64,000 bases of DNA from an uncultured Gammaproteobacteria bacterium (GTDB taxonomy: Bacteria > Patescibacteriota > Microgenomatia > Levybacterales > UBA12049): the NCBI GenBank assembly GCA_964507055.1, contig CAZDOJ010000001.1:913313-977312 (forward strand), given 5' to 3'. The position numbers and the translations under genes are program-made. Numbering within the stretch: position 1 is the first letter of the stretch; each line of letters begins with the position of its first letter. Of this stretch, positions 35,617-58,805 are shown piece by piece. Below the pieces are notes generated by a model, which saw nothing but the letters and a program-made list of their open reading frames with translations, was not told the DNA's origin and ran no database searches.

Positions 35617-36627
35617 TTACTTCTCATCTGAGGCTGATTTCGCAGCTTCAGATTCCTCAGTTGCTTCTACTGCAACTCCATCTTTCCCTTCAATTTCAAT
35701 TCGATATTTTGTCAATTTGTATGCAAGTCGTACGTTTTGTCCATCTTTTCCGATAGCTAAAGACAATTCATCTTGAGGAACAAAAACGTGAGCAACTTTC
35801 TCAGCTTCATCAATTTCGACACGAACATTCTTTGCTGGAGAAAGAGCTTGTGCGATATAAGTAGCTGTATCTTCTGACCATTGGATAATATCAATCTTTT
35901 CAAGACCACCCAATTCTTGAATAATAGCTTGGACACGAACACCTTTTTGTCCCACACATGAACCTACTGGATCGATCCCTGGTTGTGTTGAGAATACCGC
36001 AATCTTTGCTCTATTTCCAGGTTCTCGAACGACAGCTTTAATTTCAACACTTCCTTGTGCAACTTCTGGAACTTCTCGCTTGAACAAACCTTCAAGTAGA
36101 CCATTGTGGGATCGAGAAACGACTATTTCTTCACCCTTCATACCTTGACGTATTTCTGAAAGATAAAAAGAAAGTCTTTGGTTTAAGTGATATTTTTCAT
36201 TAGAAATTTGTTCTGAAACAGGCATAATAGCTTCAGCTTTGCCTATATCAACAATAACATTTGGCCCTGCAAAACGAAGAACCATTCCGTTTACAATTTC
36301 ACCGATTTTTACTCGATAATCTGTAAATATAGCTTCTTTTTCTTTTTCTCGGATCTTTTGGAGAATAACTTGCTTTGCAGTCTGTGCAGCAATACGTCCA
36401 AATCCTGGAGGCGTGACATCTTTATCGTTCTGGAAGATTTTTGCTTCACCAGAATTAGGATCTAATACAGCACGGTATTCATCCACTTCAACTCCTGGAT
36501 GGTCTTTTCGATATGCTGCTAAGATAGCATTCTGGACGGTATCAAGCACAACATCAACGTCGACCCCACGTTCTGAGGCGACTTGGTTTAAGGCTAATGC
36601 GAATTCACTTCGTTGGATAGCTGGCAT
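35617..36627 (-). CDS. nusA: transcription termination/antitermination factor NusA
   Basis: NTD, S1 and two KH domains (GSCVGQKGVRVQAIIQELGGLEKIDII; LAIGKDGQNVRLAYKLT). The ORF track starts at 36840; the conserved ATG at 36627 (MPAIQRSEFALALNQVA) was verified. Confidence 0.88.
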   Translation of the reverse strand: MPAIQRSEFALALNQVASERGVDVDVVLDTVQNAILAAYRKDHPGVEVDEYRAVLDPNSGEAKIFQNDKDVTPPGFGRIAAQTAKQVILQKIREKEKEAIFTDYRVKIGEIVNGMVLRFAGPNVIVDIGKAEAIMPVSEQISNEKYHLNQRLSFYLSEIRQGMKGEEIVVSRSHNGLLEGLFKREVPEVAQGSVEIKAVVREPGNRAKIAVFSTQPGIDPVGSCVGQKGVRVQAIIQELGGLEKIDIIQWSEDTATYIAQALSPAKNVRVEIDEAEKVAHVFVPQDELSLAIGKDGQNVRLAYKLTKYRIEIEGKDGVAVEATEESEAAKSASDEK

Positions 36628-36679
36628 AGAGCTTAGTATACCAGATACAAGCGTAACCTTCAACCACCGCGTGGGGAGA

Positions 36680-39600
36680 TTATGGAGCAACTTCATTCGA
36701 AGTAATTGATTGAATACGAACAAGTTCTGGAAGATTAACAACAAAATCAAGCCGCTGAACAATTTGCAGTGAAGGGTTCTCGATATTATTACCACAAAGA
36801 TCTCTGTTGTTTTGTAACGCACCACCTGTTTGTGCGGCATTCACAATAAGTACTCCCGCAAGATTTAATCGAAGATCAGCACAACTATTGGTACTTTGCA
36901 TAATAAAGGACTTATCAGTACTGAAAATTCCTGCAAGGTTTGTAGTGGTTGCTGTCGGTGCAGAACCGACAGCTGGCGGAACAATAATATTTCCAGAAAC
37001 TGAGAAAACGACAGTTGAACCTACTGGTGTTAGAATATTTCCTTTAATAGTTAAGTTACCATCGATTATAAAGACATAATGTTGGTTGGCAGGAAATGTA
37101 AAACCATTTAAGAAAACATCACCGGTTGCTGTATAGGTCCCTTGAGGCAAGCTTGCAGGGAGCGTGCAGTTAGAAAGTGTACAAATGGTGGAAAGATTTG
37201 TGGGTGTCGTATCGGATGCTTTTACTTTAGAACTAAGATAGTTATACGATGAAAAAATACCTCCGCTATTTGAAGGAACATATACTTCAGGATAAGAATA
37301 GCCTCCAACTACTTGATTGGTACTTGAAGATTGGCCAGTACCAAATGATGCTTGAGAATCCCCTGAATAAATTATCCCAGGAGTACCACAAGTTACATCT
37401 GAGGTCATCATTGTCTTACCTGCAGGGACAGGATTGTCTATACCGTTATCCATACGCAATTCTCCGCATTGTACCTGCATCCATGGATTAAAGTTGGTAA
37501 GATAATAATTCAAATTTGAGATATCACCAGGAAGTGTTGTAACCGTACCATTTCTGCTTTCTTCATTTCCAAAGGTATTCATAGAGTTTGAATCTGAAGC
37601 ATACTCAGCTTCTATCCAATCTGCAGATCTGGCGATACTTGAAACTCTCACTTCATCAATTTTTCCATCCATACACCACGCATAATTACCTGAACTACAA
37701 GCACCATTTGGATCTGCTCGGCCAATCATATACGGTTCTGAACTTGTATAATTTCTCAGTGTGCCAGAATAAGTGGAGCTATCAAGCAAGACACCATTCA
37801 CATATAGCTTAATACTTTTCGCAACACTATCTATTGTCTGCACAACATACGCCCAGTTACCAGTAGGAAACACTGTCGGCTCTGATTTTGTCACAAAGGC
37901 AGAGCTCGTCGTATTACGACCTGTCGCAAGGTAATACTGCCCATTAACATAGCTTAGTCCACTAAAATTTCCTCGTCTTCCAATAATTGCATAGTCGCTA
38001 AGTCCGGTATTATCGGGAATCGTGTCAGGATTTACCCAAGCACTAAATGTATAACTAGCATTTGTTAGGCCAACAATACTCGCGGGTGAACTTGGGATCG
38101 AAATACCAGTATTTGCAACTTTTCCTCCTGCAAAATCGAGGGCATGTCCAATCTTACCCGTTGTAAAATCTGAAGGCTGAGACGCGGAGACAAGCTTCGT
38201 ACCATTATTTCTATTACTTGTAGAATCGGTAACTGTACTAATATTCCCATCATTTAAATGAGTTACAATTGCATAACTACTATTCCAAACATTGGCGGCA
38301 TTTTGCCCATCAGTTGCCGTCGAGTTGTTATAGTACATCCAAATAAAGTCAGCATTTGAATTTGCATCGATTTGTGGTACTTTCACCCAAAGATCCGAAG
38401 TCCCAGTCTCATCCCATCTTTCAATTTCATGGGACAAGACATTGACGCCATCAGCATCAACAAATCTCACATCTTGTCCCAAATTTTGGGTTTTCGCATA
38501 GTCAATATTTGTACTATTGAGGGAGACTCTCAGTGGGAAATTAACCAAACTTTCAGCGGAAGCTGTATTATTAATAGTAATTTTTCTCCTTGATAGCCAC
38601 TTTGGATCCCACCAATCGGTGGTCGGCTCTTCAGCTGAAATACCATCACTTGTATAGACTTCAATTCCAGAAAGGTTGAAATCTCCTCCAGATTGGAATA
38701 AGGAGAGACTGCCATCACTCACCGTAACATGGTAAGGGCCAAGCTTTTTCCAAGTACCAGCACTCCCGCTTTCGAGATTTGAAGCTTTTGCAATACCTTC
38801 AAAGCCAAGATTATATGTTGTGGATGTAGTATCCTCCCACGTATAGACATATACAGAATAGTCTCCATTTGCAATTGGGATATCAACTGTTAGCTGGACA
38901 TTATTACTCCTCCAAATTGAAGAACGAATCATTTGAGCTTTATTCGTACTAACCGAAGGATTGAGGGTAATACCTTGATTTTGGAAATTCGCCCCGTTAG
39001 TCGTGATGCCAGCTGTCGATTGAGCTTGAAAAGTGACACCATCAACATCAAGTTGTGGTCCATTAAAGTTAATTGCTTTTACCAGTGTTTGAACAGGTAA
39101 TGTCGAACTTGGAGTTCCTTCATAAAGCTGTACATCGTCAACCCAAACAGTTCCTGTTGCTGTCGCAACTTGGAAACCGACAAGTGCATTACTCTTTGTT
39201 TCGGTTGCTTGGAATGTATAGGTAAATTGCTGCCAGTTGGTATTCAGTGATGGAGTCTTTCTCGTATATAGAGTGTATGGCTCATCTGCATCCTGTACTA
39301 CAGCATCAATAGTGCGGTTATTTGACGCCTTAGCCCAAAAGCTGAGTGTATATGTTTTGCCTGAGGTGACAGGGATACCATACGTTGCTAACTCCAGATC
39401 GTGAGGATCTGTAGTGGTGGCTGTCACGGCCACTTGAGCAGAATAAGCACCATGCGTACTCGTAGAATTTGTCGCCGTAAATGTACCATTTGCTGATCCT
39501 CTTTTTTGCAAGAACCAATTTGCAGTTCCTTGTTCAAAACTCCAATTCTGTACAAAATTTTCTCTTGTTGAAGGTGTATTGGTCGGTTCAATTGCCGTTG

Positions 39601-40171
39601 CTCCTGCTGTGAAAACAGCATCGTCAACATAAAATGCATTACCTGCCACGGCTTGTTCCTGTACTACATAAAGTTCAACATTAGTCCTTCCCGAGGATTG
39701 GATCGACATAGTGGAGGTAACTAACTGCCACGAGGTTGTAATATAAACAGGTTGGCCATAAACAGTTCTACTTGCGGAAGACCCACCATTCTCGCGAATA
39801 GCAACATATACTGGCTTACCTGTATTAGAATCCCCACGCACATAGACAGCACCGCTGAATTGTTGACCTACTTGAGGATTTGCAATTGATCCAGCAAATT
39901 GCATCGTGTAGAGATTTCCTGTGGACTGAGTAGCCTTGCACGATCCTGCACCAGAACGAACAGGACTAGTAACACGAGAGATTGTAGCTTGATATCCTGT
40001 AATTCCTGACGTATTTGTGTCGCATGTAGGATTTTGCAATACATTAACGACTGCTGCCCGTGTCCCCGTAAAGAAATCCGAAAACGAAATAATCCCAAGG
40101 AATGTAATGAGAAATGCACTTAGGAAAAACAAAAATGTATGGTGTCTTTTATTAAAGTCTATTTTAAGCAT
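36680..40171 (-). CDS. giant surface protein (1163 aa): signal anchor, CBM4/9-like module, second beta-sandwich, malectin-like domain, DUF2341, LamG/ConA-like lectin domain, C-terminal beta-rich region
   Basis: The N-terminal CBM is paralogous to that of the 10987..12750 peptidase (SGAGSCKAT...AFYVDDAVF). The malectin-like module is paralogous to that of the 8839..10878 hydrolase (LVKAINFNGPQLDVDGVTFQAQ...GGDFNLSGIEVY). DUF2341-like block WDPKWLSRRKITIN...LWVKVPQIDANSNADFIWMYY. LamG block GKIDEVRVSSIARSADWIEAEY. Confidence 0.6.
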   Translation of the reverse strand: MLKIDFNKRHHTFLFFLSAFLITFLGIISFSDFFTGTRAAVVNVLQNPTCDTNTSGITGYQATISRVTSPVRSGAGSCKATQSTGNLYTMQFAGSIANPQVGQQFSGAVYVRGDSNTGKPVYVAIRENGGSSASRTVYGQPVYITTSWQLVTSTMSIQSSGRTNVELYVVQEQAVAGNAFYVDDAVFTAGATAIEPTNTPSTRENFVQNWSFEQGTANWFLQKRGSANGTFTATNSTSTHGAYSAQVAVTATTTDPHDLELATYGIPVTSGKTYTLSFWAKASNNRTIDAVVQDADEPYTLYTRKTPSLNTNWQQFTYTFQATETKSNALVGFQVATATGTVWVDDVQLYEGTPSSTLPVQTLVKAINFNGPQLDVDGVTFQAQSTAGITTNGANFQNQGITLNPSVSTNKAQMIRSSIWRSNNVQLTVDIPIANGDYSVYVYTWEDTTSTTYNLGFEGIAKASNLESGSAGTWKKLGPYHVTVSDGSLSLFQSGGDFNLSGIEVYTSDGISAEEPTTDWWDPKWLSRRKITINNTASAESLVNFPLRVSLNSTNIDYAKTQNLGQDVRFVDADGVNVLSHEIERWDETGTSDLWVKVPQIDANSNADFIWMYYNNSTATDGQNAANVWNSSYAIVTHLNDGNISTVTDSTSNRNNGTKLVSASQPSDFTTGKIGHALDFAGGKVANTGISIPSSPASIVGLTNASYTFSAWVNPDTIPDNTGLSDYAIIGRRGNFSGLSYVNGQYYLATGRNTTSSAFVTKSEPTVFPTGNWAYVVQTIDSVAKSIKLYVNGVLLDSSTYSGTLRNYTSSEPYMIGRADPNGACSSGNYAWCMDGKIDEVRVSSIARSADWIEAEYASDSNSMNTFGNEESRNGTVTTLPGDISNLNYYLTNFNPWMQVQCGELRMDNGIDNPVPAGKTMMTSDVTCGTPGIIYSGDSQASFGTGQSSSTNQVVGGYSYPEVYVPSNSGGIFSSYNYLSSKVKASDTTPTNLSTICTLSNCTLPASLPQGTYTATGDVFLNGFTFPANQHYVFIIDGNLTIKGNILTPVGSTVVFSVSGNIIVPPAVGSAPTATTTNLAGIFSTDKSFIMQSTNSCADLRLNLAGVLIVNAAQTGGALQNNRDLCGNNIENPSLQIVQRLDFVVNLPELVRIQSITSNEVAP

Positions 40172-40173
40172 AA

Positions 40174-43140
40174 TTATTCACATTTGGCCCCTGTTGCACT
40201 ATTGGTATTACATTCTGGTCCAAGCGTAACTTGAAATGATGGAGGGGGTCCATTCAATGGATATGTCATCCTATACCCTGATGTGAGCGGAGAGACAAGT
40301 GAAACTGTATATGTTCCAGGCGGCAAAGCTCCGCTAGAGTATGTTCCATTGGTCGTCTCGACTGTTTTTCTCGCGGGTCCTGAGAAGAAAATAAGCATAG
40401 GATCCGTAATGAGTGTGTCAGGTGAAGCCAATTTTAGATCTTTATCAAAGTCATTTACGATATTTCCAGAAATTGTAAATCCTGTTGCATTTCCAAAATC
40501 AATATTATCGTACGTGTTCCCAGATTCAACGCTTAAGTTATACGATTTGGTATCTGTTGTTTGATACCAGCCTGATTGAACAACTTCCGTAAATACAAAA
40601 TCTTTAGTACACAAACCTGTAAAAGAGAACTTACCTGCTGAATTTGTTTTTGCTGTAATTGGGATATCTAAGTCTTCTGCGGACGCCTGAACTGTCCAGT
40701 TATAAAGAGGGGAATCTCCCCCATCATAAACCTTATTTGTATTTTTGTCTTCAAATATAGTTCCATTAACCACACCTGTTCCAATATCTTCAGCAATACT
40801 TTGGTAAATAGATTCAAGCGTAGAAGTTGATGGAGAATTATAGAATCGTCCTCCATTTGTATCAGCAATCTGCTGCATAAAAATAGGATCGAAAGAACCT
40901 GAACCCTGTCCAATACCAATAACCTGATAGATGATGTTTTGTCCATTAACACCGTTAATTGTCGCAGCCATTGCTGCGTTCTCTGCGGCATCTATTGAGA
41001 CATTGCCACCATTTGATCCTATCATCTGATTTGTCGCACCATCGGTCATGACGATCACAACTTTCTGTGCATTTCTTGTTGAACGTGATAGTTCACCATT
41101 TGCGAGAGCAATACCACATTCTACACATGTTCCTCCACCGCTCGTTGGAATATTTGTAATTGCAGTTTTCATCGCTGAAATATTGGTTGTTAAAGGCTGG
41201 GACACTCTCGTGAAGCTATAATTTGGATAGCTCGTACTTCCTGCGAACTGGACGAGGGAATATTGAGCATTTTTAACATGAGCTGAAACAATATCGATAA
41301 AGCTACTCGCCGCACGTTTTGCAGCAAGAGACTTAGTGAGTCCAGTCGTTGGATCCACTTCGTCCATACTTCCAGAATCGTCAAAGACAAGAACAATATC
41401 AACACCATTTGCACTACATGATCCACCTACTTTTGTTGTCGTTCCTTCTACTATTCCAAAATTAATTGTACGATCTGTGGAAAGTGAGAAATTGAGTGAA
41501 TTTGCAGTAGTACTTCTATATCCTGTTGGTGTATCAACTCGAATTGTATAATCTCCACTTCCTTGATCCGCAAATAAATATGCCCCACTAGCATCAGTCG
41601 TTTTCGGAACTGGCGTACTTTTTGTCAAAGTTACTACCCCACCCTGATAAAGCGGTTCACTAGGGTCAAGCAATCCATTCTTATTTAAATCTATAAACAC
41701 TTTACCAGCAATGTTATAGAGCGTAACCATACCAAATTCAACAGTTTTTGACGTCGTTCCAGTTGATGTCCCAGCTGTAGTAGGATTGGTGAAAGTAACA
41801 GTTTGTGTATTAACTGTCGTACTCTTCTTTTTTGCAGGTAGTGTATAGGTAATTGTATATGTACCAGCGTAAAGATTGGGAAAAGAAAAACTACCAGAGT
41901 TATTCGTAACCGCTGAACCTGTCGCTGTCCCTGAGAGCAAAATATTTACACCTTCTTCAATTGAATCTCCTGACCCCTTTTTACCATCTTCATTTCTATC
42001 TTCGAATATCGATCCTGAAATTGTAAAAAGTGGTATGATTCCAAAATTAAGTGTCCTATTGGGCCCGACTGCAAAATTTTCTTCCGAGGGTGTTGAGGCC
42101 TGATAATTGGCTGGCAAAGGAAACTCCGCATTATATGTACCAGCGAAAAGCTGTGCTGTGTAAGTCCCATCAGAACCACTCCGTGCAGTTATTGTAGCAG
42201 GTCCAGTAAAGGTAATCGTACCACCTGTATAATTGCCATCAGCACTATCATCGGAACCATTTCTGTTGTTATCAAGGAATATTGTCCCAGAAACCGTATA
42301 GTATTGTGCTATACCGAAATTGACTGATTGATTTGCATTCAAAGTCACAGATTTAGGATTTGTACTTGTTGTTTTGTAGCCTCCTGGAACTGCTACTGTT
42401 ACTGTATATGTCCCAGCAAACAAAGAAGGAAATGTGAAGTCTCCGTTGGAATCAGTTGTGGTAGTCGTGGAAGTAGGACCCGAAACAGAAACCGTTATAC
42501 CATTATTTCCAGATTCATCAGTATCTTTTGTTGTATCAATATCGGTATCTGTAAATACATTTCCAGTAAGCGTATGGACAAAACCAATACCAAAGTTTAC
42601 AGTCTTGTTCGACGTTAAAGAAACCGATTGCGGGTTGGTCGAAGTGTTTTTATATCCGTTGGGTACAGTAATCGTCACTGTATAATCTCCTCTTGGTAAG
42701 GTCACTGAGTATCCTCCCGTCAAACTTGTGGTTGTCGTGGTAGAAGATGCACCAGTAATAGTAACTGTCACACTACTAACACCAACTTCAAGAGTATCTT
42801 TATTGCCATTGGCATTGGCATCAACATATACACTTCCCGAAAGAACAGCCGTTGGAATAGGTGTTGGAGTAGGTGTATTAGTCGGAGGAGCTGGTGTCGG
42901 TGTGTTGGAAGGCGTCGGTGTATTGGACGGAACTGCTTGTGCGATAAGATCACCTAATACTCCTTTTTCTGCATTCCTTTCTTTCCCCGGCTGCGGTGAA
43001 ACAAGTTGCTTTACTTGCTGCACCTTTTCAGGATAAAAAATACTTGCTGCACTTGTAATTATGCCTACAAAAACAATTGCTATAAAAATAGTGTTCGTAA
43101 TTTTTAATATATTTAATTGAGGCTTTTTAAACATGCACAA
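40174..43140 (-). CDS. giant surface adhesin-like protein (988 aa): signal anchor, PT linker, tandem SdrD-B/CnaB-like beta-sandwich repeats flanking a von Willebrand factor A domain
   Basis: vWA MIDAS motif VDIVLVFDDSGSMDE...VVIVMTDGATN. At least 8 repeats of the type GxVFxDxNxNGxxD...GV.V.L...TD..G.Y.F. PT-rich linker TPTPSNTPTPAPPTNTPTPTPIPT. Confidence 0.65.
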   Translation of the reverse strand: MCMFKKPQLNILKITNTIFIAIVFVGIITSAASIFYPEKVQQVKQLVSPQPGKERNAEKGVLGDLIAQAVPSNTPTPSNTPTPAPPTNTPTPTPIPTAVLSGSVYVDANANGNKDTLEVGVSSVTVTITGASSTTTTTSLTGGYSVTLPRGDYTVTITVPNGYKNTSTNPQSVSLTSNKTVNFGIGFVHTLTGNVFTDTDIDTTKDTDESGNNGITVSVSGPTSTTTTTDSNGDFTFPSLFAGTYTVTVAVPGGYKTTSTNPKSVTLNANQSVNFGIAQYYTVSGTIFLDNNRNGSDDSADGNYTGGTITFTGPATITARSGSDGTYTAQLFAGTYNAEFPLPANYQASTPSEENFAVGPNRTLNFGIIPLFTISGSIFEDRNEDGKKGSGDSIEEGVNILLSGTATGSAVTNNSGSFSFPNLYAGTYTITYTLPAKKKSTTVNTQTVTFTNPTTAGTSTGTTSKTVEFGMVTLYNIAGKVFIDLNKNGLLDPSEPLYQGGVVTLTKSTPVPKTTDASGAYLFADQGSGDYTIRVDTPTGYRSTTANSLNFSLSTDRTINFGIVEGTTTKVGGSCSANGVDIVLVFDDSGSMDEVDPTTGLTKSLAAKRAASSFIDIVSAHVKNAQYSLVQFAGSTSYPNYSFTRVSQPLTTNISAMKTAITNIPTSGGGTCVECGIALANGELSRSTRNAQKVVIVMTDGATNQMIGSNGGNVSIDAAENAAMAATINGVNGQNIIYQVIGIGQGSGSFDPIFMQQIADTNGGRFYNSPSTSTLESIYQSIAEDIGTGVVNGTIFEDKNTNKVYDGGDSPLYNWTVQASAEDLDIPITAKTNSAGKFSFTGLCTKDFVFTEVVQSGWYQTTDTKSYNLSVESGNTYDNIDFGNATGFTISGNIVNDFDKDLKLASPDTLITDPMLIFFSGPARKTVETTNGTYSSGALPPGTYTVSLVSPLTSGYRMTYPLNGPPPSFQVTLGPECNTNSATGAKCE

Positions 43141-43229: not shown

Positions 43230-45638
43230 TTAGGAGATATCTGCGTGAAGTGCACCAGTTCCGTCGATTGTAAAGTTTACTTTCTTGCCTCGATCGATTT
43301 CTTTGGTCAATCGTTTCTGAGCAATCATATCTTCAACAGTATCCTGTAAATATCGACGTAACGGTCGAGCACCAAAATCTTTATCAAATCCTTCTTGCGT
43401 AATCTTTTCGATGACTGCATCATCAAAAGAAAGTGTAATATCTTGTTTTGCTAATGATTCTATCAGCTGATCGAGTAGCAGCTTTGTCACTGCGATCACT
43501 TGTTCCGGACCAAGTGGTTTAAATGTTACAACATCGTCAAAACGATTAAGTAATTCTGGTTTGAAAATGCCTTTTGTTTGTAGTTGTTCCAAAAGACGTT
43601 GCTCAAATTTCTTATCTATTGGTGTACCCTTTTCAACTTCTTCACGGATGAACTCAGATCCTGCATTTGATGTTGCGATGATAATAGCATTACGGAATGA
43701 AACAGTCGCTCCTTTATTATCTGTTAATCTTCCATCATCAAGCACTTGAAGGAAGAGATTGTGAATAGCAGGATTTGCTTTCTCAAATTCATCAAGAAGG
43801 ATAAGCGAGGCTGGATTATCATGGATTTTATCAGTCAATTGTCCACGATCTTCTCCTTCACCAGGAGCAGCTCCAAGAAGTCGTTTCAATCCATTTTCAT
43901 CTGTATATTCACTCATATCCAAACGAATCATTCGTTGTTCACCACCATAATAGAACTGTGCCAGTGCTTTCGCTGTTTCTGTTTTACCAACACCAGTTGG
44001 TCCCAAGAAAAGGAATGAGATTGGCCGTTCGCTTGTCGTCATCCCAGAGCGAATACGACGCATTGCTTCACTTATTGCAACAACTGCCGTATCTTGTGCG
44101 ATAACTCGTTCATGCAATTTATCTTCCAAATGCAATAATAAATTAATCTCCTGGCCTGTAGGAAGTGCTATGGCGACATGACTTGTTGCTTCTACTTTCT
44201 TTACAACATCTTGCTCACTGACCATTTTGCGATGCGTCTTTTCAAAGGCAGGTCGTTCTTTTTCCTGAGAGACAGCATTGGCTACAGTTTCGAGCAATGA
44301 TACGGCACTTCCCGGAAGTACTTGATCTTGGAAGAACCGTTCTGCTAGCTCAACGGCACTTACAAGTGCTCGATAACTTATAATTACTCTATATTTATCT
44401 TCAATTTTTGCAGCCTCGCCTAACGCCATTTGAATAGCATCCGCAGGCTCAACAGGTTTTAATTCAACAACGGTAAAGGCTTCTTTCAGAGGATTTTTTT
44501 CCATATATTTCTTGTACGTACCAGTTGTCATCGTCGCAACCATGGGAACATTACCGCTTTTTAGATATGGGAGAAGAGCTCCTGAAAGATCCAAACCATA
44601 AGAAGTCGCTCCAAGAATATTTTGGAAATCAGGAATATACATGAAGACATCATTGGCATGAGATATTTCAGCAATAATGTTTTGCAGTCGTGCTTCAAGA
44701 TCATTTCTATTTCCAGCACCCGCAGTCAAAGCACCTACTAATAATTGAAAGATTCGCTTGTGATTCAAATAACCACCCAAATTGCCACTAAAGCTGTGAT
44801 ATGCCAATGCTCTTACTAAATTCTCTTTTCCTGCACCGATATCTCCCACGATCAAAACATTATTATTTTCAATTTTGGTGAGACCTTCAAGCATTGTTTT
44901 AAATTCTGCTTCTCTGCCACCAATATGCGGTTCTGTCTGCAATGCATAATTTGTAAACAGAGCTGTATATTTCTTTGTCTCTGGTGTCCATCCGGAATTG
45001 AGTGCTTCACCGATACCACTTCCAGTAAATTTGATTCGTACAGGTTTGGGATTCTCTTCATCTGGCATATCAAGTCGAACCCAATACAGAATATTGTACA
45101 GATCAGTTATTTTAAGTTGCTTTGCAAAAAGAATCTTTGTGTCTTTTTCAATTAAGAATAAATATGCTACAAGCACATCAAGAGTTGTTACATATTTCGC
45201 TTTAAAAGTTTGTGCTGTTTGAAATGCACTTTGGGCAAGAAGTTTTTTATCAACATCATTTACCACTAATTCTTTACTTGTGATGTTGGCTTTTTGAAGG
45301 ACTAATTTTACTTGAGGGTAAGTGATTAAGCGTTTAATAAGCGTTGACGTATTTGGTTCTGTAATAAATCCATATAAAGCAGCGAGTGTAAACGATTCAT
45401 ACATATTTTCTTCTTTATTCTTTGACACTTCTATTGTTGGAACAGCACGACTCACTTTATAGTGAAAAAATACTTCAAACATTACAAACAAATTAAAAAG
45501 AAATACGCTAACCTTTGGAGGGATATCATATGCGATCTGATAAAGAATAAGCGAAAAAAGCATTGCAAAAATGACAAGCCTAATACTTCGTACAAGTGCG
45601 GTTCGATAAAAACGATATAGTCGGACAGATAATTCCAT
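43230..45638 (-). CDS. membrane-anchored Hsp100/Clp-family AAA+ ATPase with degenerate D1 and intact D2
   Basis: Two N-terminal TM helices (LVIFAMLFSLILYQIAY; VFLFNLFVMFEVFF). A Clp-N-like repeat. D1 Walker A degenerate (IVGDIGAGKEN) with no DE Walker B. D2 canonical ([34 protein letters not shown]). No ClpP-docking IGF loop. No M-domain. Confidence 0.7.
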   Translation of the reverse strand: MELSVRLYRFYRTALVRSIRLVIFAMLFSLILYQIAYDIPPKVSVFLFNLFVMFEVFFHYKVSRAVPTIEVSKNKEENMYESFTLAALYGFITEPNTSTLIKRLITYPQVKLVLQKANITSKELVVNDVDKKLLAQSAFQTAQTFKAKYVTTLDVLVAYLFLIEKDTKILFAKQLKITDLYNILYWVRLDMPDEENPKPVRIKFTGSGIGEALNSGWTPETKKYTALFTNYALQTEPHIGGREAEFKTMLEGLTKIENNNVLIVGDIGAGKENLVRALAYHSFSGNLGGYLNHKRIFQLLVGALTAGAGNRNDLEARLQNIIAEISHANDVFMYIPDFQNILGATSYGLDLSGALLPYLKSGNVPMVATMTTGTYKKYMEKNPLKEAFTVVELKPVEPADAIQMALGEAAKIEDKYRVIISYRALVSAVELAERFFQDQVLPGSAVSLLETVANAVSQEKERPAFEKTHRKMVSEQDVVKKVEATSHVAIALPTGQEINLLLHLEDKLHERVIAQDTAVVAISEAMRRIRSGMTTSERPISFLFLGPTGVGKTETAKALAQFYYGGEQRMIRLDMSEYTDENGLKRLLGAAPGEGEDRGQLTDKIHDNPASLILLDEFEKANPAIHNLFLQVLDDGRLTDNKGATVSFRNAIIIATSNAGSEFIREEVEKGTPIDKKFEQRLLEQLQTKGIFKPELLNRFDDVVTFKPLGPEQVIAVTKLLLDQLIESLAKQDITLSFDDAVIEKITQEGFDKDFGARPLRRYLQDTVEDMIAQKRLTKEIDRGKKVNFTIDGTGALHADIS

Positions 45639-45649
45639 AAATTAAATCA

Positions 45650-46027
45650 CTATAAAAACAATAACCAAATAGTTGCGAATGGCAAAAATATATACCCAAG
45701 AAATATTGTTACCTCAAGCAGCAAAAGGAGTGCGAGCATTAAGACATCAGCAAGGATAAGCCATGTTTTTACAAACATACCCATTGCTCTTGAAAAACCC
45801 ACAAGTCCTTGCCGATATTCATTTTTAATCGGTTGGAAATATGTTTTAAGGAACAACGGTAATGAGAATAAATGAAAGAATGAGCTGTTCAACGAAGCAA
45901 AGAACTGCAGTAATGATAAAGGACTTTCGTAGAACCAAAACTTCAAAAACATAAAAGGAATATTTAAATAACTTCTATGCCAGACAAAATGTGGTACATG
46001 AATTTGGACAGGTTTTACATTTTTCAT
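45650..46027 (-). CDS. small polytopic membrane protein (125 aa)
   Basis: Hydrophobic ORF lying 11 nt upstream of the membrane-anchored Hsp100. No family recognised. Confidence 0.4.
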   Translation of the reverse strand: MKNVKPVQIHVPHFVWHRSYLNIPFMFLKFWFYESPLSLLQFFASLNSSFFHLFSLPLFLKTYFQPIKNEYRQGLVGFSRAMGMFVKTWLILADVLMLALLLLLEVTIFLGYIFLPFATIWLLFL

Positions 46028-46132
46028 ATTTCCAACACAAACATGCCGAACGAGTTCGGACCATACTTTAAGTATATGCAGTAAGCAAGAGAATTACAAT
46101 GGAACGAAGGATGACATGAGAAAATAGAGGGG

Positions 46133-49100
46133 CTATTCAATCTCTTCTTGTCGAGTCTGTGGAGCTACATAATTAACAGGTCTAAAACTGTTAGGAATTC
46201 CAGAGTAATTGTAAGCCGTTTGAGGAGACATTGCCGCACCATTTGAAGCGACTCCATTTGCAGGAGGTGGTGTGCTATCTACTGCACCATTCGGCAAACT
46301 TGTTGGTGCTGGCGTTTGGAATACAGGGCTCGTATTCTCTGCCTGAGCAGGAGCCGCAGGTGATGCCGGAGCAACTGGCACTGCTGCTGGATCATTCACA
46401 ACTGCACCAGCAGGGGCCGGAGCAACTGGTTCTGAACCTACAGGAGTATTCACTGGAGCATCAGCTGGAGTTGTTGAGTCTGTTGGTTGTTGAGATTGAT
46501 CTTGTGTCGAACCTTGTGCATCCTGCGGTGCATTAGGATCTGTTCCTTCGACAGGTTTATCTGTTGGAGGTTGATCTCCACCATCGGTAGGTTGTCCTTC
46601 TTGTGCTGCAGGTGCATCATCGACTGCGATATTCTTCACACCAGCTGTCTCGAGAACGAGAATAGCAATCTCATCCTTTTGTCCTGCAGCTGCCACCATA
46701 TCTTCAACCATCTTTTCTAGTTCCTCATATTTAACGGTATCCTTAACAGCCAATACTGCTGCTGCTAATTGATTGCCTTTTTGACTTGCTTCATTCAATT
46801 TCGCTTGAACTGATGTGTACTTCTCTTTATCAGATGGTGTCTCTGCTGTAACAGGATTATTGATAAGCAAGAGGTGCTTCTTAAAGTTACGCAGTGGTTC
46901 ATGTGCTAATTCTTCTTCGATAACTTTGAGAATCTCAGTAGCCAATGGATCGCCTGAGTCTTTTGCAGCTTGTAGTTCTTTCTGAATAGCTGCGATGTCA
47001 TCATCAGAAGTTATATCTGTAATTGCCAAGATCTTACTTGCAAGCTCATTATTCTCTTTCTTTGCCTTCTGCATCTTTTCATATACAAGATTAAACTGGT
47101 CTTTCACTTCAGGATCAGCGAGATAAAGTGGATTAATAAGCTGCTTTAGAACATTCTTGAATTTCGTGACAGGCTCTTCGTTGTGTGCTTCTTCCGCTTC
47201 TTCTACAAGCTCACTATTTACTGCTGCAAGGATATCTTCAGCCAAGCTATCTTCATTTTCTTTAGCAGCCTTCAAATCTGTCATCAAATCCTCAATTGCA
47301 GAATCGGAAGTTGTATCATTAACCGCGAGAATCTTAGTAGCCAAAGCATTTCCTCGTTGGCTCTCCATATTGAGTTTCTCATGGAGTTCCATGAACCGGA
47401 TCTTCTTATTATTATCTTTGATATCGTCAGGGTGAATGATTTCAAGAAGGATCTTTTTTAGCTTCAAAGACGCTTGGATCTGTTGTGCCATACTATTGGC
47501 AAGCTCAATAATTTCAAATGCTAAATTGTCACCCTTTGCCTTTGCTTCTTCAATCTGTTTACGCAATGTTTGAATCTGTTTCAAATCAGTAGAGACAGTC
47601 ACTTCTAAAATACTGCTTGCCATTGCATTCTTATCTGTTCGAGCTTGGATTAACTTGTCATGAAGGACAATAAATCGTGACTTATCAACTGTACTTGTAA
47701 TGTTGTCTGGATTTGCCAAGTTGATCAAAACAGTTCTGAACTGTTCATCAGATAATGGCATAACTGTTGCACCAGCTCCACCTTTGTTAAAGACGAACTC
47801 ATTTGTATTATCACTGTAATCAATAACAATCGTGTCCCCAGCAACAAATTTCTTTGAAATGATCGCTAATGCGATAGGATTCTCAATCGCTGTTTGGACA
47901 AGTCTTCGGAGAGGTCGAGCACCATAGACAGGATCATATCCATCTTTCGCAAGCTGATTGATAGCCTTTTCTGTGATCTGCAGATTGTAGCCTTGCTCTT
48001 TCAAAAGCTTTGCAGTCTTTGCGATCGCCAAACGTGCGATTCCAGCCATATGTTCTGGTTGCAATGGCTTAAAGATAACAACTTCATCAAAACGATTAAG
48101 GACTTCCGGACGGAAGAATTTAATAAGTTCTTCGCGAACTTTAACCTGCATATCCTTAAAGATTTTTTCAAACTCTTCTGGAGTTCTCTTTGCTTTTGAA
48201 TCCACGTTGCTCAAAAATTGCTGGATAATGCCACTTCCGATATTGGAAGTACAAATAACGATAGTATTCTTAAATGAAATTGTATTACCTTTGTTATCAG
48301 TCAAACGTCCATCTTCAAGCAGTTGGAGCAAGATATTAAATACATCAGGATGAGCTTTTTCGATTTCATCAAGAAGTACGATAGAATAAGGTTTCTTTCG
48401 AACAGCTTCAGTTAATTGGCCACCTTCTTCATATCCAACGTATCCTGGAGGTGCACCAATAAGTTTTGCAACTTCATGCTTCTCCATGTATTCAGACATA
48501 TCCATACGAGCCATTGCATCATCACGTCCGAAAAGAAGTTCTGCAAGTGTCTTTGCAAGTTCGGTTTTACCTACACCGGTAGGACCAAGGAATACGAAAG
48601 ATGCGATAGGGCGATTTGCTGCAGCTAAACCGATTCTTCCACGTCGTACAGCTTCCGAAACAGCACCAACAGCTTCTTCTTGATCAACCATTCTATGATG
48701 GATTCGGTCCTCAAGCTTAAGAAGCTTTTCACTTTCATCTTCAGTAAGCTTCGTAATTGGAATACCAGTCCAAGCACTGACGACTTTTTCAATATCAGCC
48801 TTTTTGATTGATGTATCTCCTCCACCACGATTACCACCGTCTATTTGGAGCTTAACTTCAGAAGCAGCTTCATCGAGAAGGTCGATCGCCTTATCTGGAA
48901 GGTATCTTTCACCAATATATTTTTTAGAAAGTTTGACACACTCTTTCAAAGCATCATCTGGGATTTGAATTCTGTGGAATTTCTCGTACTTTGGTCGAAT
49001 AACCTTAAGCATCTCGAACGCATTCTCTTCACTTGGTTCATCTGCAGTGACAGGCTGGAATCGTCGTTCAAAGGCCTTATCTTTCTCAAAATTCTTTCGA

Positions 49101-50428
49101 TATTCAATAGTTGTTGTTGCACCAATAAGCTGGAAATGACCACGTGCCAAATGAGGCTTGATGATGTTTGCTGCATTCATACCTTCACCCTCGCCAGTTC
49201 CCATCAAAGCATGAATTTCATCAATAAAGAGAATGATTCGATTATTTGAACCAAGTACCTCGTTAATAACACCTCGCATACGTTCTTCAAATTCTCCTCT
49301 GTGACTTGCACCAGCAACTAACGACGCCACATCAAGTTGGAAAATCCTTTTTTCCTGAAGATCTTTTGGAACTGCACCCTGTACAATTTTTTGTGCAAGC
49401 CCTTCGACTAATGCTGTTTTACCAACACCAGGTTCACCGATAATAATCGGATTATTTTTTGTTCTTCGAAGCAAAACATGGACCATACGATCAACTTCTT
49501 TATCACGCCCAGCAACGGGGTCAAGGCGTCCCGCTCGAGCTTCTTCAGTAAGATCAATACCATATTTTTCAAGAACTGTCTTCTTCCCAAAATTGCTATT
49601 AGGGTTTTTTGAAAGCTTCTCGACCATTTGCTCTTTCTTTAAGTTGTGCTTTTCCAAAAGTTTACCAGTGGTATATTTAGGATCAAAGAGTACTATTAAT
49701 ATATCTTCAGGTGCTATAAAGTTTGCTCCATGCATTTTTGCATCTCGATATGCTTGATCGAATACTTCTTGAGCGGTTTTACTCAGCGTTGGTTGGCCTT
49801 TATAAACCCCCATTTTTTCAGATGCTTGAATTTCTTTAGAAATTTGTCCACCATCAGCATTCATTTCCCCAAGCATTGCATACAACTGTTGGTCATAAAG
49901 AAGTCCAATAAGAACTTGATCAGGTTCAATGAACTGTTGCTTTATACGCTTTGTCTCTTCTTGAGCGTGTGTCAAAGCTTGTGTTGCACGAGGGTCAAGG
50001 TGACTGAGAGCTGAAAGATCCGATTGACCTGCTGCGGGATGTGCTGTTGCACCATCAGATCCTGCAGGTGCTTGTCCCGGTTGACCTGGCTGAGCAGCCT
50101 GACCTGGTTGTGCGTTTGGATCTGGTTGTCCTTGTTGTGGGTTTTGACCATCTTGAGATGCTCCTTGTTGTACTGGCTGACCGGAAGCATCGGTTTGAAC
50201 AGGAGCATTTGGATCAGCAGGACCTGATGAAACTGGGGTTTCGTTTGTCGGAGACTGTACTGCATTCGGATCAGATGGAGCCCCAGTTGGGACAGGAGCA
50301 GCAGTGCTTGCATTTGGGTCAGCAGGAGATTGAGCCTGTGTATTTTGAGGCTGATTTTGAGCACCATTTGGTTGAGGAGTTATACCATCTGGTTGATCTT
50401 TTTTCTGGTTAAAAATGTTTCCGAACAT
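46133..50428 (-). CDS. giant Hsp100/Clp-family double-AAA+ ATPase (1431 aa) with low-complexity termini and four C-terminal repeats of about 95 aa
   Basis: Clp_N repeats. D1 [17 protein letters not shown] / [11 protein letters not shown]2 [19 protein letters not shown] / [15 protein letters not shown] / GARPLRR. Only about 20 aa separate the D1 small subdomain from D2, so there is no ClpB or ClpC M-domain. No IGF/IGL ClpP loop. PQG-rich residues 1-140 and 1270-1431. Confidence 0.75.
46619..47776 (-). repeat. intragenic tandem protein repeats (4 x about 95 aa) in the Hsp100 giant; same family as in the adjacent membrane protein tail
   Basis: Units begin L[AI]NP or IIHP and contain GN.LA..IL.V.D.TS...I..L...L.AAK..GD.LA.EIL (residues about 898-1270). 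Confidence 0.7.
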
Positions 50429-50528: not shown

Positions 50529-53500
50529 CTAATTTTTAGCACTTTCGTCTTCTTTTTTATCATTCTCTGTTGCAGACAATTCTTGTGCTGATTCAGACTT
50601 ATTTGTATCGACTGTAATAGCAACTTTACCTTCTTCGTCTTTTTGCAATTCTGCTATAACATTCTTTCCGGCTTCTGCCTTGGCTTTTAAGTAGCCCATA
50701 ACTTCTTGTGATGAGAATCCTCCAAGCATAAGCATTGGCAATATCTCAGAGACCTTCTCCATTCCTTCTGCTTGCTTTTGCGTATCAGATGAACCGAGCA
50801 ATTCAATAGTTTCTTCTACCATCTTTACATCGGATTCGATCCATGCGATACGACCTGTTGCTTCACTACCAAATTCTGCAGGAACTGGAAGTGTTCTATA
50901 ATTTTCTTCCCATAGCTTTTTAACTTCTTCATAATCTTCATCAGAAACTGGTTGAAGTTTGTTATCTTCAGGAGCGATACTATCATCAGGGAGATGCTCA
51001 AGAATTGATTGAGCAACTGGTTCTCCCTTTGCGTTTGCATCTTTTAGTTTCTCACTAAGTTTTTCTATGTCATCTACTGAAGTAACATCTTTTGTAGCAA
51101 GAATCTCTTTTGCTAACTCATTTCCTTCTTCACTCGCCTTAGTGAGAGAATCATGTAATTCAGTAAATCGTTTCTTATCTGCCTCTACCGTCGACTTTGT
51201 AGGATCTGCAATCTGAGAAAGAACAGTCTTTACAGTATCAGATTTCTTCCCTTGAGCCTTCATTGATGCTCGAAGAAGAACCGCAGCAGTAACATTACCT
51301 TTCTGTTTTTCATCTAATAGGGTCTGGCGTACGTTCTCAAACTTAGATCTTTCAGTGCTATCTGTTATCGCTGAAGGATTTGCAATCTTACTAAGAACGC
51401 TTTGTACTTTCTCTATCTCTGCTGTCCGTGAAGCATCTTTCTTCAATGCTCTTGTTTCAAACTGTGCAATATCTCTCAGTTTTGGAACCTGTAAATTAAC
51501 CATATTGAATATTTCATTCGAGATTTGAGGAGCAGAGATAGTTGTATGATTTGTGACATTTGTTACATTTCCGAGAGAACTAAGAGGACTCTCATCTTCA
51601 TCATCAGCAGAACTCGAGCTTGAACCAGCTGAGCTACTTGAATCAGATGAATCTGTTTGCTCCATAGATGCAACCATAGTCTTTGCAGCATGAGTGGATG
51701 TTGTATTAACACTAATCTTATCTTCTTCGTCTGCAGCCAATGTCTTGGATACATCTTTCGCAGCATCCTGCTTTGCTTGGAGATACGAGACGATTTCATT
51801 TTGTGAAAAACCTCCAACCATAAGGAAAGGTAAAATGTTTGAAACTTGCTGCATACCTTCTTTGACTTCTTCCTCATTGGTTGACGAGAGTAATCCAATA
51901 GTTTCATCAATACTTTCGATATCATCTTTAATCCACTCTGATCGAGTACCAGCCATACCTTGAGGTACTTCGAGGTTTTGGTAGTTCTGCTTCCACATAT
52001 CTCGAACTGCCTGATAGTCTTCTTTACTAACATTCTGTACCCGATTAGTAGTAGGCAATGAAGCAGTCTTTTGTGCCAATGCCGCAACTTCTGCTGCCAC
52101 TGGTTCACCTTTTACTTGAGCCTCTTGAATCTTCTGTTGTAATGCCTCAATTTCAGACACTGATGTTTTATCACTTACTTTAAGAATTGATGTAGCAAGT
52201 TGGTTTCCTTGAGAGCTTGCTTTTTCAAGAGTTGCTTTCAATTTGGTAACAGCCTGTTTATCTGCAGTGTGTGTTACAGAACCAGGATTCGCCATCTGTG
52301 AAAGAACATTCTTAATTGATGAAGTTGCTTGAGCTTGTTGCTGTACTGTTGTTGAAACTGATTTTCCAAGATGAGTATTAGAGACTTGACTCAATTGCCC
52401 CTGAATCTTCTCAATTTCTTTATCTGATGTCTTATCACTTACTTTAAGAATTGATTGAGCAAGTTGACTTTTTTCTGTGGTCTTTGCCCCCTGGCTTTCT
52501 TTAACAAGCATTCCATTGAGCTTTGTCATCTTGTCACGATTAGTTACGTTCGCAAGTGAAGGGTTTGCCATTTGCTTTAAGGATTCACGCATCTGTTGAT
52601 TTGAGACTTGTGTATTGCGTTTCGCAGTTACGCTTGCAGCATTCATGATTGAGTTAGCAAGAAGATTACCTTTCTCATTATTTGTAGAGATATTCTCATG
52701 AATCTCAACATATCTATCTCTTTCTACAGTATTTGTAACTGATACCGGATTTGCGATTCTCTCAAGAGTCTGTGTCATTCGAGTAGTTTCTTGTTGCTTC
52801 GATTGGTCACGAGACATAAGAGCCGCATCGTATTTAGCAATGTCACGAAGACTAGGAACTTTAACATTTGCAGCACTGAGCACTTGGGCATTAACAGTTG
52901 CACTATTAATATTTGCCAATGGTATGGAGGTCGGCTGTGCAAAGGTTGCCTGCATATTCTGAACATTCAATTCCTTAGCTGCACCTGCAGGTCCAGGACC
53001 CAAATCCTTTGGTATTGCAAATTTCTTGGCAAAAGGTAATGCAATTGCGGCACCACCAGGAGATTCGGACTTACCACCGCCTCCAGGAGGTTGCTTATTC
53101 GTTGATGCCATATTAACAAGTGTTTTCATCACTGCTGTATCACCAGGAGCGAAATTGGAAGCATAATCCAGGAAAATCTGTAGCAAAATCCATGGAAGCA
53201 GAATAACAATCCACAACATGATAAGAGAAACAACATAAAGTGCGAAAGTTTCGATCAAGTTAACACTATTCGTAGGCGTAACGAACTGTCGTGGTCCACC
53301 AAGAAGAATATTAACAGCAGTAGGGAAGACAATTTGGCTTGCATTACCAATATTTGAATTAACGAATACAAGTGGGATCTGATTCTTCCAAAGATACACT
53401 AAACCATTAAGGAAGATCGCAAATAAAGGTGCATACAATAACCATCGGAAAAATTCTCCGATCCAGATCTTTGCTGTATTTCGAACAGGATAATAAAGGA

Positions 53501-58768: not shown

Positions 58769-58795
58769 TTAGCAATAATATATCACGAGTGCCAA
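58769..58795. promoter_or_regulatory. CIRCE-like operator (TTAGCAATA-N9-GAGTGCCAA)
   Basis: 15 of 18 positions match the consensus TTAGCACTC-N9-GAGTGCTAA with the exact 9-nt spacer. It overlaps the hrcA promoter and lies 18 nt upstream of the hrcA ATG. Confidence 0.45.
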
Positions 58796-58805
58796 ACACT
58801 GTCAA
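58777..58805 (-). promoter_or_regulatory. sigma-70-type promoter of the hrcA operon (-35 TTGACA, 17 nt spacer, extended -10 TGATATATT)
   Basis: Minus strand TTGACA at 58805..58800. TATATT at 58782..58777, preceded by TGA. The CIRCE-like dyad occupies the spacer and the -10, which is typical for HrcA-repressed promoters. Confidence 0.5.

Follow-up and report, generated by a model that had tools for sequence, protein, structure and literature searches.

The 64,000-nt stretch of DNA analysed here, referred to as the window (GenBank assembly GCA_964507055.1, contig CAZDOJ010000001.1, positions 913,313 to 977,312, forward strand), is core chromosome and carries rpoB/C, alaS, ftsK, RNase J, pnp, nusA, infB and metG. 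Its minus strand also encodes a Clp/Hsp100 homologue with a predicted N-terminal membrane anchor, labelled TM-Clp in this report, and, directly upstream, a small membrane protein, referred to as the partner. An earlier note on this DNA, made from the letters alone, had described an 802-residue open reading frame (ORF) with a small-protein ORF 11 nt ahead of it, and the ORF coordinates bear this out:

43230 to 45638, minus strand: TM-Clp gene, an ATG-initiated ORF for an 802-residue membrane-anchored Clp/Hsp100 homologue (Pfam, HMMER and Foldseek)
45639 to 45649, minus strand: 11-nt spacer between the partner and TM-Clp genes, an operon junction
45650 to 46027, minus strand: gene for the 125-residue partner membrane protein (core of ~109 residues), an ORF directly upstream of TM-Clp

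As judged from sequence and predicted fold, TM-Clp is a class-I Hsp100, yet it fails the defining features of each named subfamily. The Pfam matches comprise AAA_2 at residues 540–702 (E = 2.6e-48; Cdc48 subfamily) and ClpB_D2-small at 709–788 (E = 1.6e-20), and the first half of the protein gives AAA_lid_9 at 399–476, sub-threshold P-loop matches near residue 260 and nothing else. The best sequence matches in the PDB are ClpC, ClpB and ClpA, which are also the top Foldseek matches of the AlphaFold2 (AF2) model, built from a 66-sequence alignment with a mean predicted local distance difference test score (pLDDT) of 81.5, and the HMMER alignment to ClpC extends over residues 236–791. The class-I layout of tandem AAA+ modules (D1 and D2), a D1 lid and a C-terminal D2-small domain is present.

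The TM-Clp gene is genuine and strongly conserved in Levybacteria, which belong to the candidate phyla radiation (CPR). At least 120 homologues have at least 61% identity and a length of ~802 residues. With residues 1–240 as the query, HMMER recovered 91 clusters from 1.84 billion representative proteins, with full-length members of 778–832 residues, and a scan of species-representative genomes with residues 1–400 returned 57 loci, mostly labelled Levyibacteriota. The motif counts given below are based on alignments of 119 close homologues (at least 61% identity), 47 species-level loci and 26 distant representatives. The relatives carry the database names 'ATP-dependent Clp protease ATP-binding subunit ClpA/ClpC' or 'AAA family ATPase', and a literature search found no description of a membrane-anchored Clp/Hsp100, of this family, or of Clp in Patescibacteria/Levybacteria, an absence that is not proof. 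The metagenome-assembled genome (MAG) titles of L008, L013, L014, L026, L028 and ~25 other Levybacteria-type loci include 'uncultured Gammaproteobacteria bacterium', and other related loci are titled Methylomirabilota, Limnocylindrales, Lysobacterales or Sulfotelmatobacter; such organism labels look unreliable.

On the basis of these comparisons, TM-Clp represents a distinct, lineage-wide Hsp100 subfamily that is obligately paired with a small membrane protein and whose architecture is well established and whose biochemical role we infer. The family is defined by a hairpin with R20 and E55, a D1 module that has lost Walker B, an intact D2 and a small gene directly upstream, all of which were found in the window. 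The N-terminal region consists of three elements:

45603 to 45635, minus strand: basic and aromatic amphipathic helix, residues 2–12 (AF2 helix; conserved Y/K/R pattern)
45531 to 45599, minus strand: hydrophobic helix 1, residues 14–36, a predicted transmembrane span preceded by invariant R20 (Kyte-Doolittle, AF2)
45453 to 45515, minus strand: hydrophobic helix 2, residues 42–62, the second hairpin arm, with conserved N49, E55 and H59 (AF2, Kyte-Doolittle)

The two hydrophobic N-terminal helices of the earlier note were thus recovered as a translated hairpin, the second arm of which is marginal by Kyte-Doolittle hydropathy. All three helices are modelled with pLDDT 87–92, and the homologues share the pattern Y..YRTAL.RSIRL(hydrophobic x12)...FLFNLFVM.EVFFHYKISR. 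Helix 2–12 is probably located at the cytoplasmic membrane interface. Helix 1 has a hydropathy of 2.18 over 19 residues, above the classical threshold, with a family median of 2.29 and values of at least 1.6 in 99% of members (n = 154); positions 21–32 are never charged in these 154 sequences. Helix 2 has a family median of 1.90 over 17 residues in the same set, and positions 43–58 are devoid of charge except for the near-invariant E55 (invariant in two alignments and 94% in the widest), with N49 and H59 also conserved. The net charge across the 154 sequences is +3.3 in the N-terminal flank, +0.3 in the 6-residue loop and +1.9 in the flank following helix 2. The positive-inside rule is established knowledge and, given basic flanks and a near-neutral loop, predicts a hairpin with both ends cytoplasmic, which is also the sole topology that keeps the ATPase in the cytoplasm, where ATP is. 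Both ends of the hairpin should therefore face the cytoplasm.

The earlier note had itself raised the possibility that the true start is an internal Met. Some database entries are 722–771 residues long and begin at an internal Met, and no obvious Shine-Dalgarno sequence lies ahead of the ATG at 45638, both of which would suit an annotation artefact in which M53 or M79 is the real start of a soluble ClpA/C-like ATPase. The first 66 codons, however, differ from those of the closest relative at a proportion of 0.65 of synonymous sites (pS, saturated) and 0.08 of nonsynonymous sites (pN), which indicates purifying selection, and residues 1–66 are conserved at the amino acid level in more than 150 homologues. 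Within the 91 clusters, conservation sets in at residue 1–5 and nearly all alignments begin in the first 20 query residues, the exceptions being N-terminally truncated entries or fragments; an ATG occupies family position 1 in 50/50 loci examined, and in 16 loci it overlaps the upstream gene as ATGA. With selection on codons 1–66, a conserved ATG and a conserved hydrophobic pattern, the start-site artefact was rejected, its likelihood being close to nil, and these sequence data indicate that the first 66 codons are translated.

TM-Clp and its partner form a conserved two-gene unit, of which TM-Clp is the second gene. In all loci with upstream DNA (54/54), a match to the partner hidden Markov model lies immediately ahead of TM-Clp on the same strand; in the remaining 3 of the 57, TM-Clp is at a contig edge. 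The partner gene is also directly upstream in L065 and L066 (P0293 and P0273; ~23–26% identical in the N-region), the two most divergent members among those with contigs fetched. The surrounding gene order differs in both, and in L065 the pairing is kept although none of the usual neighbours is shared. Among 48 loci with separate genes, 16 show a stop-to-ATG distance of −4, the ATGA overlap, and in most the distance does not exceed 10 nt; the junction suggests translational coupling. The link to the small membrane protein is accordingly stronger than first claimed, and the occurrence in 54/54 loci and in two distant members supports a functional link of TM-Clp to its partner.

The partner itself has no Pfam, NCBIfam or PADLOC match. 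Homologues number 85 by single sequence and 594 by profile, all of them unnamed and ~108–109 residues long, and the best 120 of the 594 profile matches are close relatives only. Its invariant core reads FWF.E.P ... SLPLFL.TFFKPLKNEYRQGLVGFS; after it comes a long C-terminal helix, which is hydrophobic and bears conserved D94 and E105. The AF2 model (pLDDT 90) has helices at 20–53, 56–61 and 73–124, and the hydrophobic stretch at 81–125 has a Kyte-Doolittle value of 2.6. In one locus (L060, 6701–9346, plus strand), the partner and TM-Clp occur in a single ORF free of Ns, from which the amphipathic helix and hairpin helix 1 of the Clp are missing, such that the partner C-terminal helix joins hairpin helix 2. 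This arrangement would be topologically coherent if the partner C-terminal helix spans from inside to outside; it was seen in a single MAG with no close relative for comparison and could be a true fusion or an assembly or frameshift artefact. The apparent fusion in L043 was not taken as such because the ORF crosses a 100-N scaffold gap.

The hairpin is joined by a tether of ~13 residues to the N-domain, which is followed by a linker:

45039 to 45440, minus strand: divergent Clp_N-like N-domain, residues 67–200 (eight AF2 helices; hhalign)
44934 to 45038, minus strand: linker from the N-domain to D1, residues 201–235, with the motif G.GIGE..V.GWTPETKKYT (family alignments)

The Clp-N-like repeat proposed in the earlier note received moderate support. 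Comparison of the N-domain with the Clp_N of the neighbouring Clp family by hhalign gave a probability of 83.5% (E = 8e-6), the NCBIfam ClpA model aligns to TM-Clp from residue 100, and the domain is modelled as eight helices; Pfam gave no Clp_N match in TM-Clp, and residues 67–235 alone had no match among PDB sequences. In the linker, G206, G208, G210, W217 and T218 are invariant and Y224 nearly so, and residues 201–220 have a low pLDDT of 50–57. The motif may represent a docking site.

The first AAA+ module retains its fold and has lost its catalytic residues, as is evident from comparison with ClpC and with the neighbouring Clp:

44211 to 44933, minus strand: D1 AAA+ module, residues 236–476, fold kept and catalytic residues gone (AAA_lid_9 at 399–476; ClpC D1 alignment)
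44820 to 44846, minus strand: D1 Walker A remnant GDIGAGKEN, residues 265–273, against canonical GEPGVGKTA in ClpC or the neighbouring Clp; Lys kept, Thr/Ser replaced by Glu
44697 to 44732, minus strand: D1 pore-1 loop ALTAGAGNRNDL, in which AGAGNRNDLE stands against canonical AGTKYRGEFE of ClpC, with Tyr replaced by Asn
44622 to 44648, minus strand: D1 Walker B remnant VFMYIPDFQ, residues 331–339, in which FMYIPDFQ stands against canonical ILFIDE(L/I)H, with DE replaced by PD
44469 to 44492, minus strand: D1 arginine-finger position PLKEAFTV, in which LKEAFT stands against canonical LERRFQ of ClpC, with both Arg lost

The Walker A and B sequences on which the earlier note had based its claim of a dead D1 are found at these residues, and the degeneration goes further, to the Arg fingers and the pore Tyr. 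Alignments with ClpC, with the neighbouring Clp and within the family show the motifs to be substituted, which excludes their being intact and merely shifted. Among close homologues, K271 is present in 119/119 and E272 in 118/119, the Walker B DE in 0/119, and the pore loop is aromatic-free in 119/119; the DE pair occurs in 1/47 species loci and 1/26 distant representatives. None of the latter (n = 26) has the Arg fingers, and the position that follows the P-loop Lys is free to vary among them; the loss of catalysis is therefore ancestral to the family. To judge from its motifs, D1 of TM-Clp cannot be a normal ATPase. A P-loop constrained in altered form, combined with absent Arg fingers, fits nucleotide binding without hydrolysis, and the Gly/Lys skeleton retained under selection suggests a role in nucleotide binding or in structure.

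The second module has the following features:

43275 to 44141, minus strand: D2 AAA+ module and D2-small, residues 500–788, with all ATPase motifs (Pfam AAA_2, ClpB_D2-small)
Residues 546–554: D2 Walker A, GPTGVGKTE
Residues 612–621: D2 Walker B, LILLDEFEKA
Residues 655–660: D2 sensor 1, ATSNAG
Residues 756–762: D2 sensor 2, GARPLRR
43833 to 43883, minus strand: D2 pore-1 loop RLLGAAPGEGEDRGQLT, acidic, aromatic-free and two residues shorter than canonical

Walker A, Walker B, sensor 1, the Arg finger (NRFD) and sensor 2 are invariant or nearly so family-wide, and remain so though the N-terminal region of the family diverges to ~25% identity. The description of D2 as fully canonical in the earlier note therefore stands for the ATPase motifs and fails for the pore-1 loop, which is short, acidic and without Tyr, and for the ClpP-docking loop, which is absent. 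In the HMMER alignment, ClpC GSPPGYVGYDEGG is matched by GAAPGEGEDRG in TM-Clp, two residues shorter and with both Tyr replaced by Glu, such that PGEGEDRG takes the place of the canonical GYVGY. The loop is aromatic-free in 119/119 close homologues, 45/47 species-level loci and 13/26 distant representatives; the neighbouring Clp family has GYVG in 34/36 homologues. A gap falls exactly at ClpC KYVGFNV, the ClpP-docking loop that follows sensor 1, and no such loop occurs in the family alignment. The M-domain is likewise absent, including the half M-domain of ClpC (ClpC residues 404–452): ClpB models match TM-Clp in two pieces, and D1 joins D2 without an insertion.

With moderate confidence, TM-Clp is read as a membrane-anchored, ClpP-independent and D2-driven Hsp100 remodelling ATPase that works with its partner in proteostasis. 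Six subunits would form a ring whose N-domain/D1 face approaches the membrane from the cytoplasm to a distance of a few nanometres at most, held by twelve hairpin helices and the helices of the partner. D1 would serve as a non-hydrolysing structural ring that holds the hexamer together and perhaps still binds nucleotide, with D2 as the sole ATP-hydrolysing ring; neither hand-over to ClpP nor M-domain coupling to DnaK would take place. ATP-driven movement would act in quality control on clients embedded in or associated with the membrane, or on the partner complex, so as to remodel or release them. In ClpA, ClpB, ClpC and ClpX, tyrosines grip and pull the polypeptide. Neither ring of TM-Clp has such paddles and processive ClpB- or ClpA-like threading is consequently unlikely, such that the term motor used in the earlier note is doubtful in the sense of threading. 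The action is more likely a non-processive stroke like that of Torsins, or one in which the acidic loop grips basic segments electrostatically; the acidic AAA+ pore of Abo1 binds basic histone tails (PMC6917787).

Torsins are membrane-associated relatives of Clp/Hsp100 with an N-terminal hydrophobic anchor, no aromatic pore loops and a dependence on transmembrane cofactors (PMC5425593). A more far-reaching proposal, judged rather unlikely, is that TM-Clp is a bacterial counterpart of the Torsin principle, in which threading has been abandoned and D2 hydrolysis acts in or on the membrane through the collar of helices. It might then gate or dismantle a membrane complex, extract basic juxtamembrane segments or remodel the bilayer. 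If true, this would amount to an unrecognised class of membrane proteostasis machine in a CPR lineage.

Several observations weigh against TM-Clp being a D2-driven remodelling ATPase that spans the membrane and acts with its partner. Helix 2 of the protein in the window is only marginally hydrophobic (1.42 over 19 residues, below the classical threshold, and 2.17 over 15), and a monotopic or re-entrant hairpin is therefore possible. Mutual information between the two proteins, with average product correction, showed no enrichment for the hairpin, to which 15 of the 100 highest-ranking pairs fell where 16.5 were expected, in a set of 44 pairs (effective number of sequences 37) too shallow to be informative. 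Promoter-like and terminator-like matches in the region are at chance level. Torsins have a single AAA+ domain, no Arg finger of their own and a cofactor with a degenerate AAA+ fold; TM-Clp differs, as D2 keeps the Arg finger NRFD and the partner is a helical protein of ~109 residues. With that finger present and no AAA-like fold in the partner, active-site complementation of the Torsin kind is inapplicable in a literal sense. Finally, the D2 loop still contains an aromatic residue at some position in 13/26 of the most distant members; the ancestral protein may therefore have threaded its substrates, an activity that perhaps persists in TM-Clp by means of other residues.

Persistent threading would make TM-Clp a processive dislocase, anchored in the manner of FtsH or Msp1, which threads membrane proteins through D1 and D2 to the cytoplasm, with the acidic D2 loop and other residues replacing the tyrosine grip and the partner acting as a substrate receptor or channel. 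The 13-residue tether, which holds the N-domain/D1 entry face at the membrane, the full ATPase competence of D2, the location of the gene in a chaperone operon and the aromatic residues of those distant members all suit such a machine. It is nevertheless doubtful, given that both pore-1 loops are aromatic-free in all 119 close homologues and that of D2 is two residues short, that D1 cannot contribute power, and that the missing ClpP loop leaves no downstream protease partner.

The remodelling ATPase proposed here is encoded in a conserved setting. The recurrent order in Levybacteria is hrcA-grpE-dnaK-dnaJ, a 1248-residue protein and a large Clp, the small partner gene, TM-Clp, a variable insert, and nusA-infB-DHH-pnp. 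In L022, L051 and L062 the pair directly follows dnaJ, and in most species nusA comes after TM-Clp, either directly or after unrelated inserts. One regulatory candidate was found at the head of this cluster:

58769 to 58805, minus strand: strongest sigma-70-like promoter match of the region (TTGACA-17-TATATT, 11/12) overlapping a CIRCE-like repeat, just upstream of hrcA

The CIRCE-like inverted repeat, TTAGCAATA-N9-GAGTGCCAA, has 3 mismatches to the consensus, and 3/100 shuffles also match. As a sequence match, the site may be a putative control element for the cluster that ends with the partner and TM-Clp. A gene for a 420-residue protein with a C-terminal T4SS_pilin-like domain (PF18895) diverges from hrcA (58892–60154, plus strand), and a 100-residue T4SS_pilin-like ORF (PF18895; 54284–54586, minus strand) lies between dnaJ and the 1248-residue gene according to the gene calls of the identical contig L001. 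The 1248-residue protein (50529–54275, minus strand) has a sub-threshold Ldt_C match only and may be a conserved partner of the large Clp, which it precedes in ~24/57 loci.

The large Clp of the window (1431 residues; 46133–50428, minus strand) lies ~0.5 kb upstream of TM-Clp, with 37% identity across D1 and D2. In its D1 both Walker motifs and the Arg fingers are intact and the pore loop reads SHR instead of KYR, and its D2 is canonical, including GYVGY; the Clp_N match is weak, and both the M-domain and the ClpP loop are lacking. A ~140-residue N-terminal extension rich in P, Q and A precedes these domains, and a ~550-residue C-terminal extension comprises four ~95-residue repeats (pattern ...INP....K..F..L..KL..A...GN.LA..ILAV.D.TS...) and ends in a Pro/Ala-rich tail. 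A small GC-rich hairpin, CCGAACTCGTTCGG (46046–46059, minus strand), lies in the 105 nt that separate the large Clp gene from the partner gene, with no T-tract after it and a weak promoter-like match nearby.

The two Clp genes are adjacent or close in more than half of the loci, which, along with their identity over D1 and D2, would fit TM-Clp being a membrane tether or regulator of the soluble 1431-residue Clp, for example in mixed or stacked rings; a dead D1 and inert pore loops would suit such a non-working subunit. Against this, the pair occurs without an adjacent large Clp in L022, L051, L062 and L065, and all D2 ATPase motifs are invariant, which is unexpected for a passive tether. Hsp100 paralogues as divergent as these two are not known to assemble into mixed rings, and a tethering role is regarded as improbable.

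Two giant putative surface proteins are encoded between TM-Clp and nusA (36680–43140, minus strand), one of 988 residues with six SdrD_B repeats and a VWA domain and one of 1163 residues with CBM_4_9, DUF2341 and LamG. The earlier note had placed TM-Clp in a wider module with these flanking genes. Such a module, in which TM-Clp would be a membrane-proximal motor for the export or assembly of the two proteins, draws on the window itself, where all genes lie on the same strand with short gaps and the downstream products are large and adhesin-like. It did not hold up in the comparison of loci, because the two genes are found after TM-Clp in none but the closest relatives (L008, with L009 and L011 in part) and nusA takes that place in most species; the conserved neighbours are the dnaK operon, the second Clp and nusA-infB. 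Moreover, a ring whose N-face is turned to the membrane would exert an inward pull, into the cytoplasm, and not push out, and the export role is very unlikely. The 988- and 1163-residue genes look like a lineage-specific insertion into otherwise conserved synteny. The longest NusA ORF (407 residues; 35617–36840, minus strand) overlaps the end of the 1163-residue gene by ~160 nt; on the identical contig, NusA is called from an internal start (336 residues), and the ORF start is thus probably too far upstream. Further along, a 449-residue protein with an AAA domain, a Lon-type lid and no protease domain match (27858–29207, minus strand) is encoded downstream of pnp, a position conserved in related loci such as L004 and L005; like TM-Clp, it is an atypical member of the AAA+ proteins of this small genome.

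Models of the PADLOC collection for DolB and PDC-M37B match TM-Clp at residues 456–669 (E = 1e-36 to 1e-38), which would fit a role in anti-phage defence as an ATPase akin to Dodola DolB or PDC-M37 that acts with a membrane effector. The match, however, covers the generic D2 AAA+ core alone and scores far below the Clp models, the partner matches nothing in PADLOC, and in dozens of species the pair occupies a constant core-genome site between dnaK and nusA, unlike a mobile defence island. A defence function is consequently considered extremely improbable.

Hsp100/Clp machines are textbook soluble threading motors. The TM-Clp family shows how this scaffold can be repurposed, by integration into the membrane, retention of a silent and conserved ring, and loss of the aromatic grip from both pore loops, and it pairs an Hsp100 with a ~109-residue membrane protein that belongs to no named fold family; the family is hidden behind the database labels 'ClpA/ClpC'. 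It offers a system for asking how an Hsp100 ring works without pore tyrosines, what a dead D1 ring contributes and how ultra-small CPR bacteria with minimal proteostasis networks maintain their membrane proteins. The short length of the two genes puts heterologous expression and cryo-electron microscopy within reach.

Of the known systems, ClpC, ClpA and ClpE are the most similar in sequence and fold, with the same order of N-domain, D1, D2 and D2-small and D2 ATPase motifs of the same type. TM-Clp differs from them in its membrane hairpin, its dead D1, the absence of pore Tyr from D1 and D2, and the lack of both the VGF/IGF ClpP-docking loop and the ClpC half M-domain; the NCBIfam ClpA model (TIGR02639) scores 397 against a cut-off of 993. 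With ClpB/Hsp104, TM-Clp has in common a double-ring Hsp100 without a ClpP loop and a gene beside dnaK-dnaJ-grpE. The coiled-coil M-domain, which is the DnaK docking site in ClpB/Hsp104, is missing, however, and an inactive D1, aromatic-free pore loops and the membrane anchor set TM-Clp further apart (TIGR03346, score 435 against a cut-off of 1232). The ClpV/TssH model gives 356 against 885 (TIGR03345), with no type VI secretion genes in the window or the related loci, and the ClpK/G models of NCBIfam also match, far below their cut-offs. TM-Clp is thus distinguished from ClpA/C by the missing ClpP loop, from ClpB by the missing M-domain and from ClpV by score and context.

More distant systems each share part of the design. 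Human CLPB/Skd3 keeps the canonical pore-loop Tyr. It resembles TM-Clp in having an Hsp100 D2-type motor as its sole working ring and an N-terminal hydrophobic stretch in the precursor, which is removed by PARL (PMC9934407), and differs in having ankyrin repeats instead of Clp_N and D1. FtsH is similar in its N-terminal pair of membrane helices, its hexameric AAA+ ring at the cytoplasmic face and its role in membrane protein quality control; its single AAA module, however, is of the classic clade, has an aromatic pore loop and is fused to an M41 protease, whereas TM-Clp is an Hsp100-clade double ring in which Pfam found no Peptidase_M41 match. In type-II AAA+ proteins whose first ring is inactive, such as Pex1/Pex6 and, through its D2, NSF, one ring serves assembly or nucleotide binding and the other does the work, and Pex1/Pex6 is tethered to the membrane by a small membrane protein. 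These belong to a different AAA+ clade, are tethered solely by a separate anchor and have aromatic pore loops in the active ring. The nearest functional precedent is Torsin with LAP1/LULL1 of the eukaryotic ER and nuclear envelope, a membrane-held AAA+ protein of the Hsp100 clade with no aromatic pore loops and a transmembrane partner, and by analogy this resemblance may point to a possible mode of working for TM-Clp rather than to family membership.

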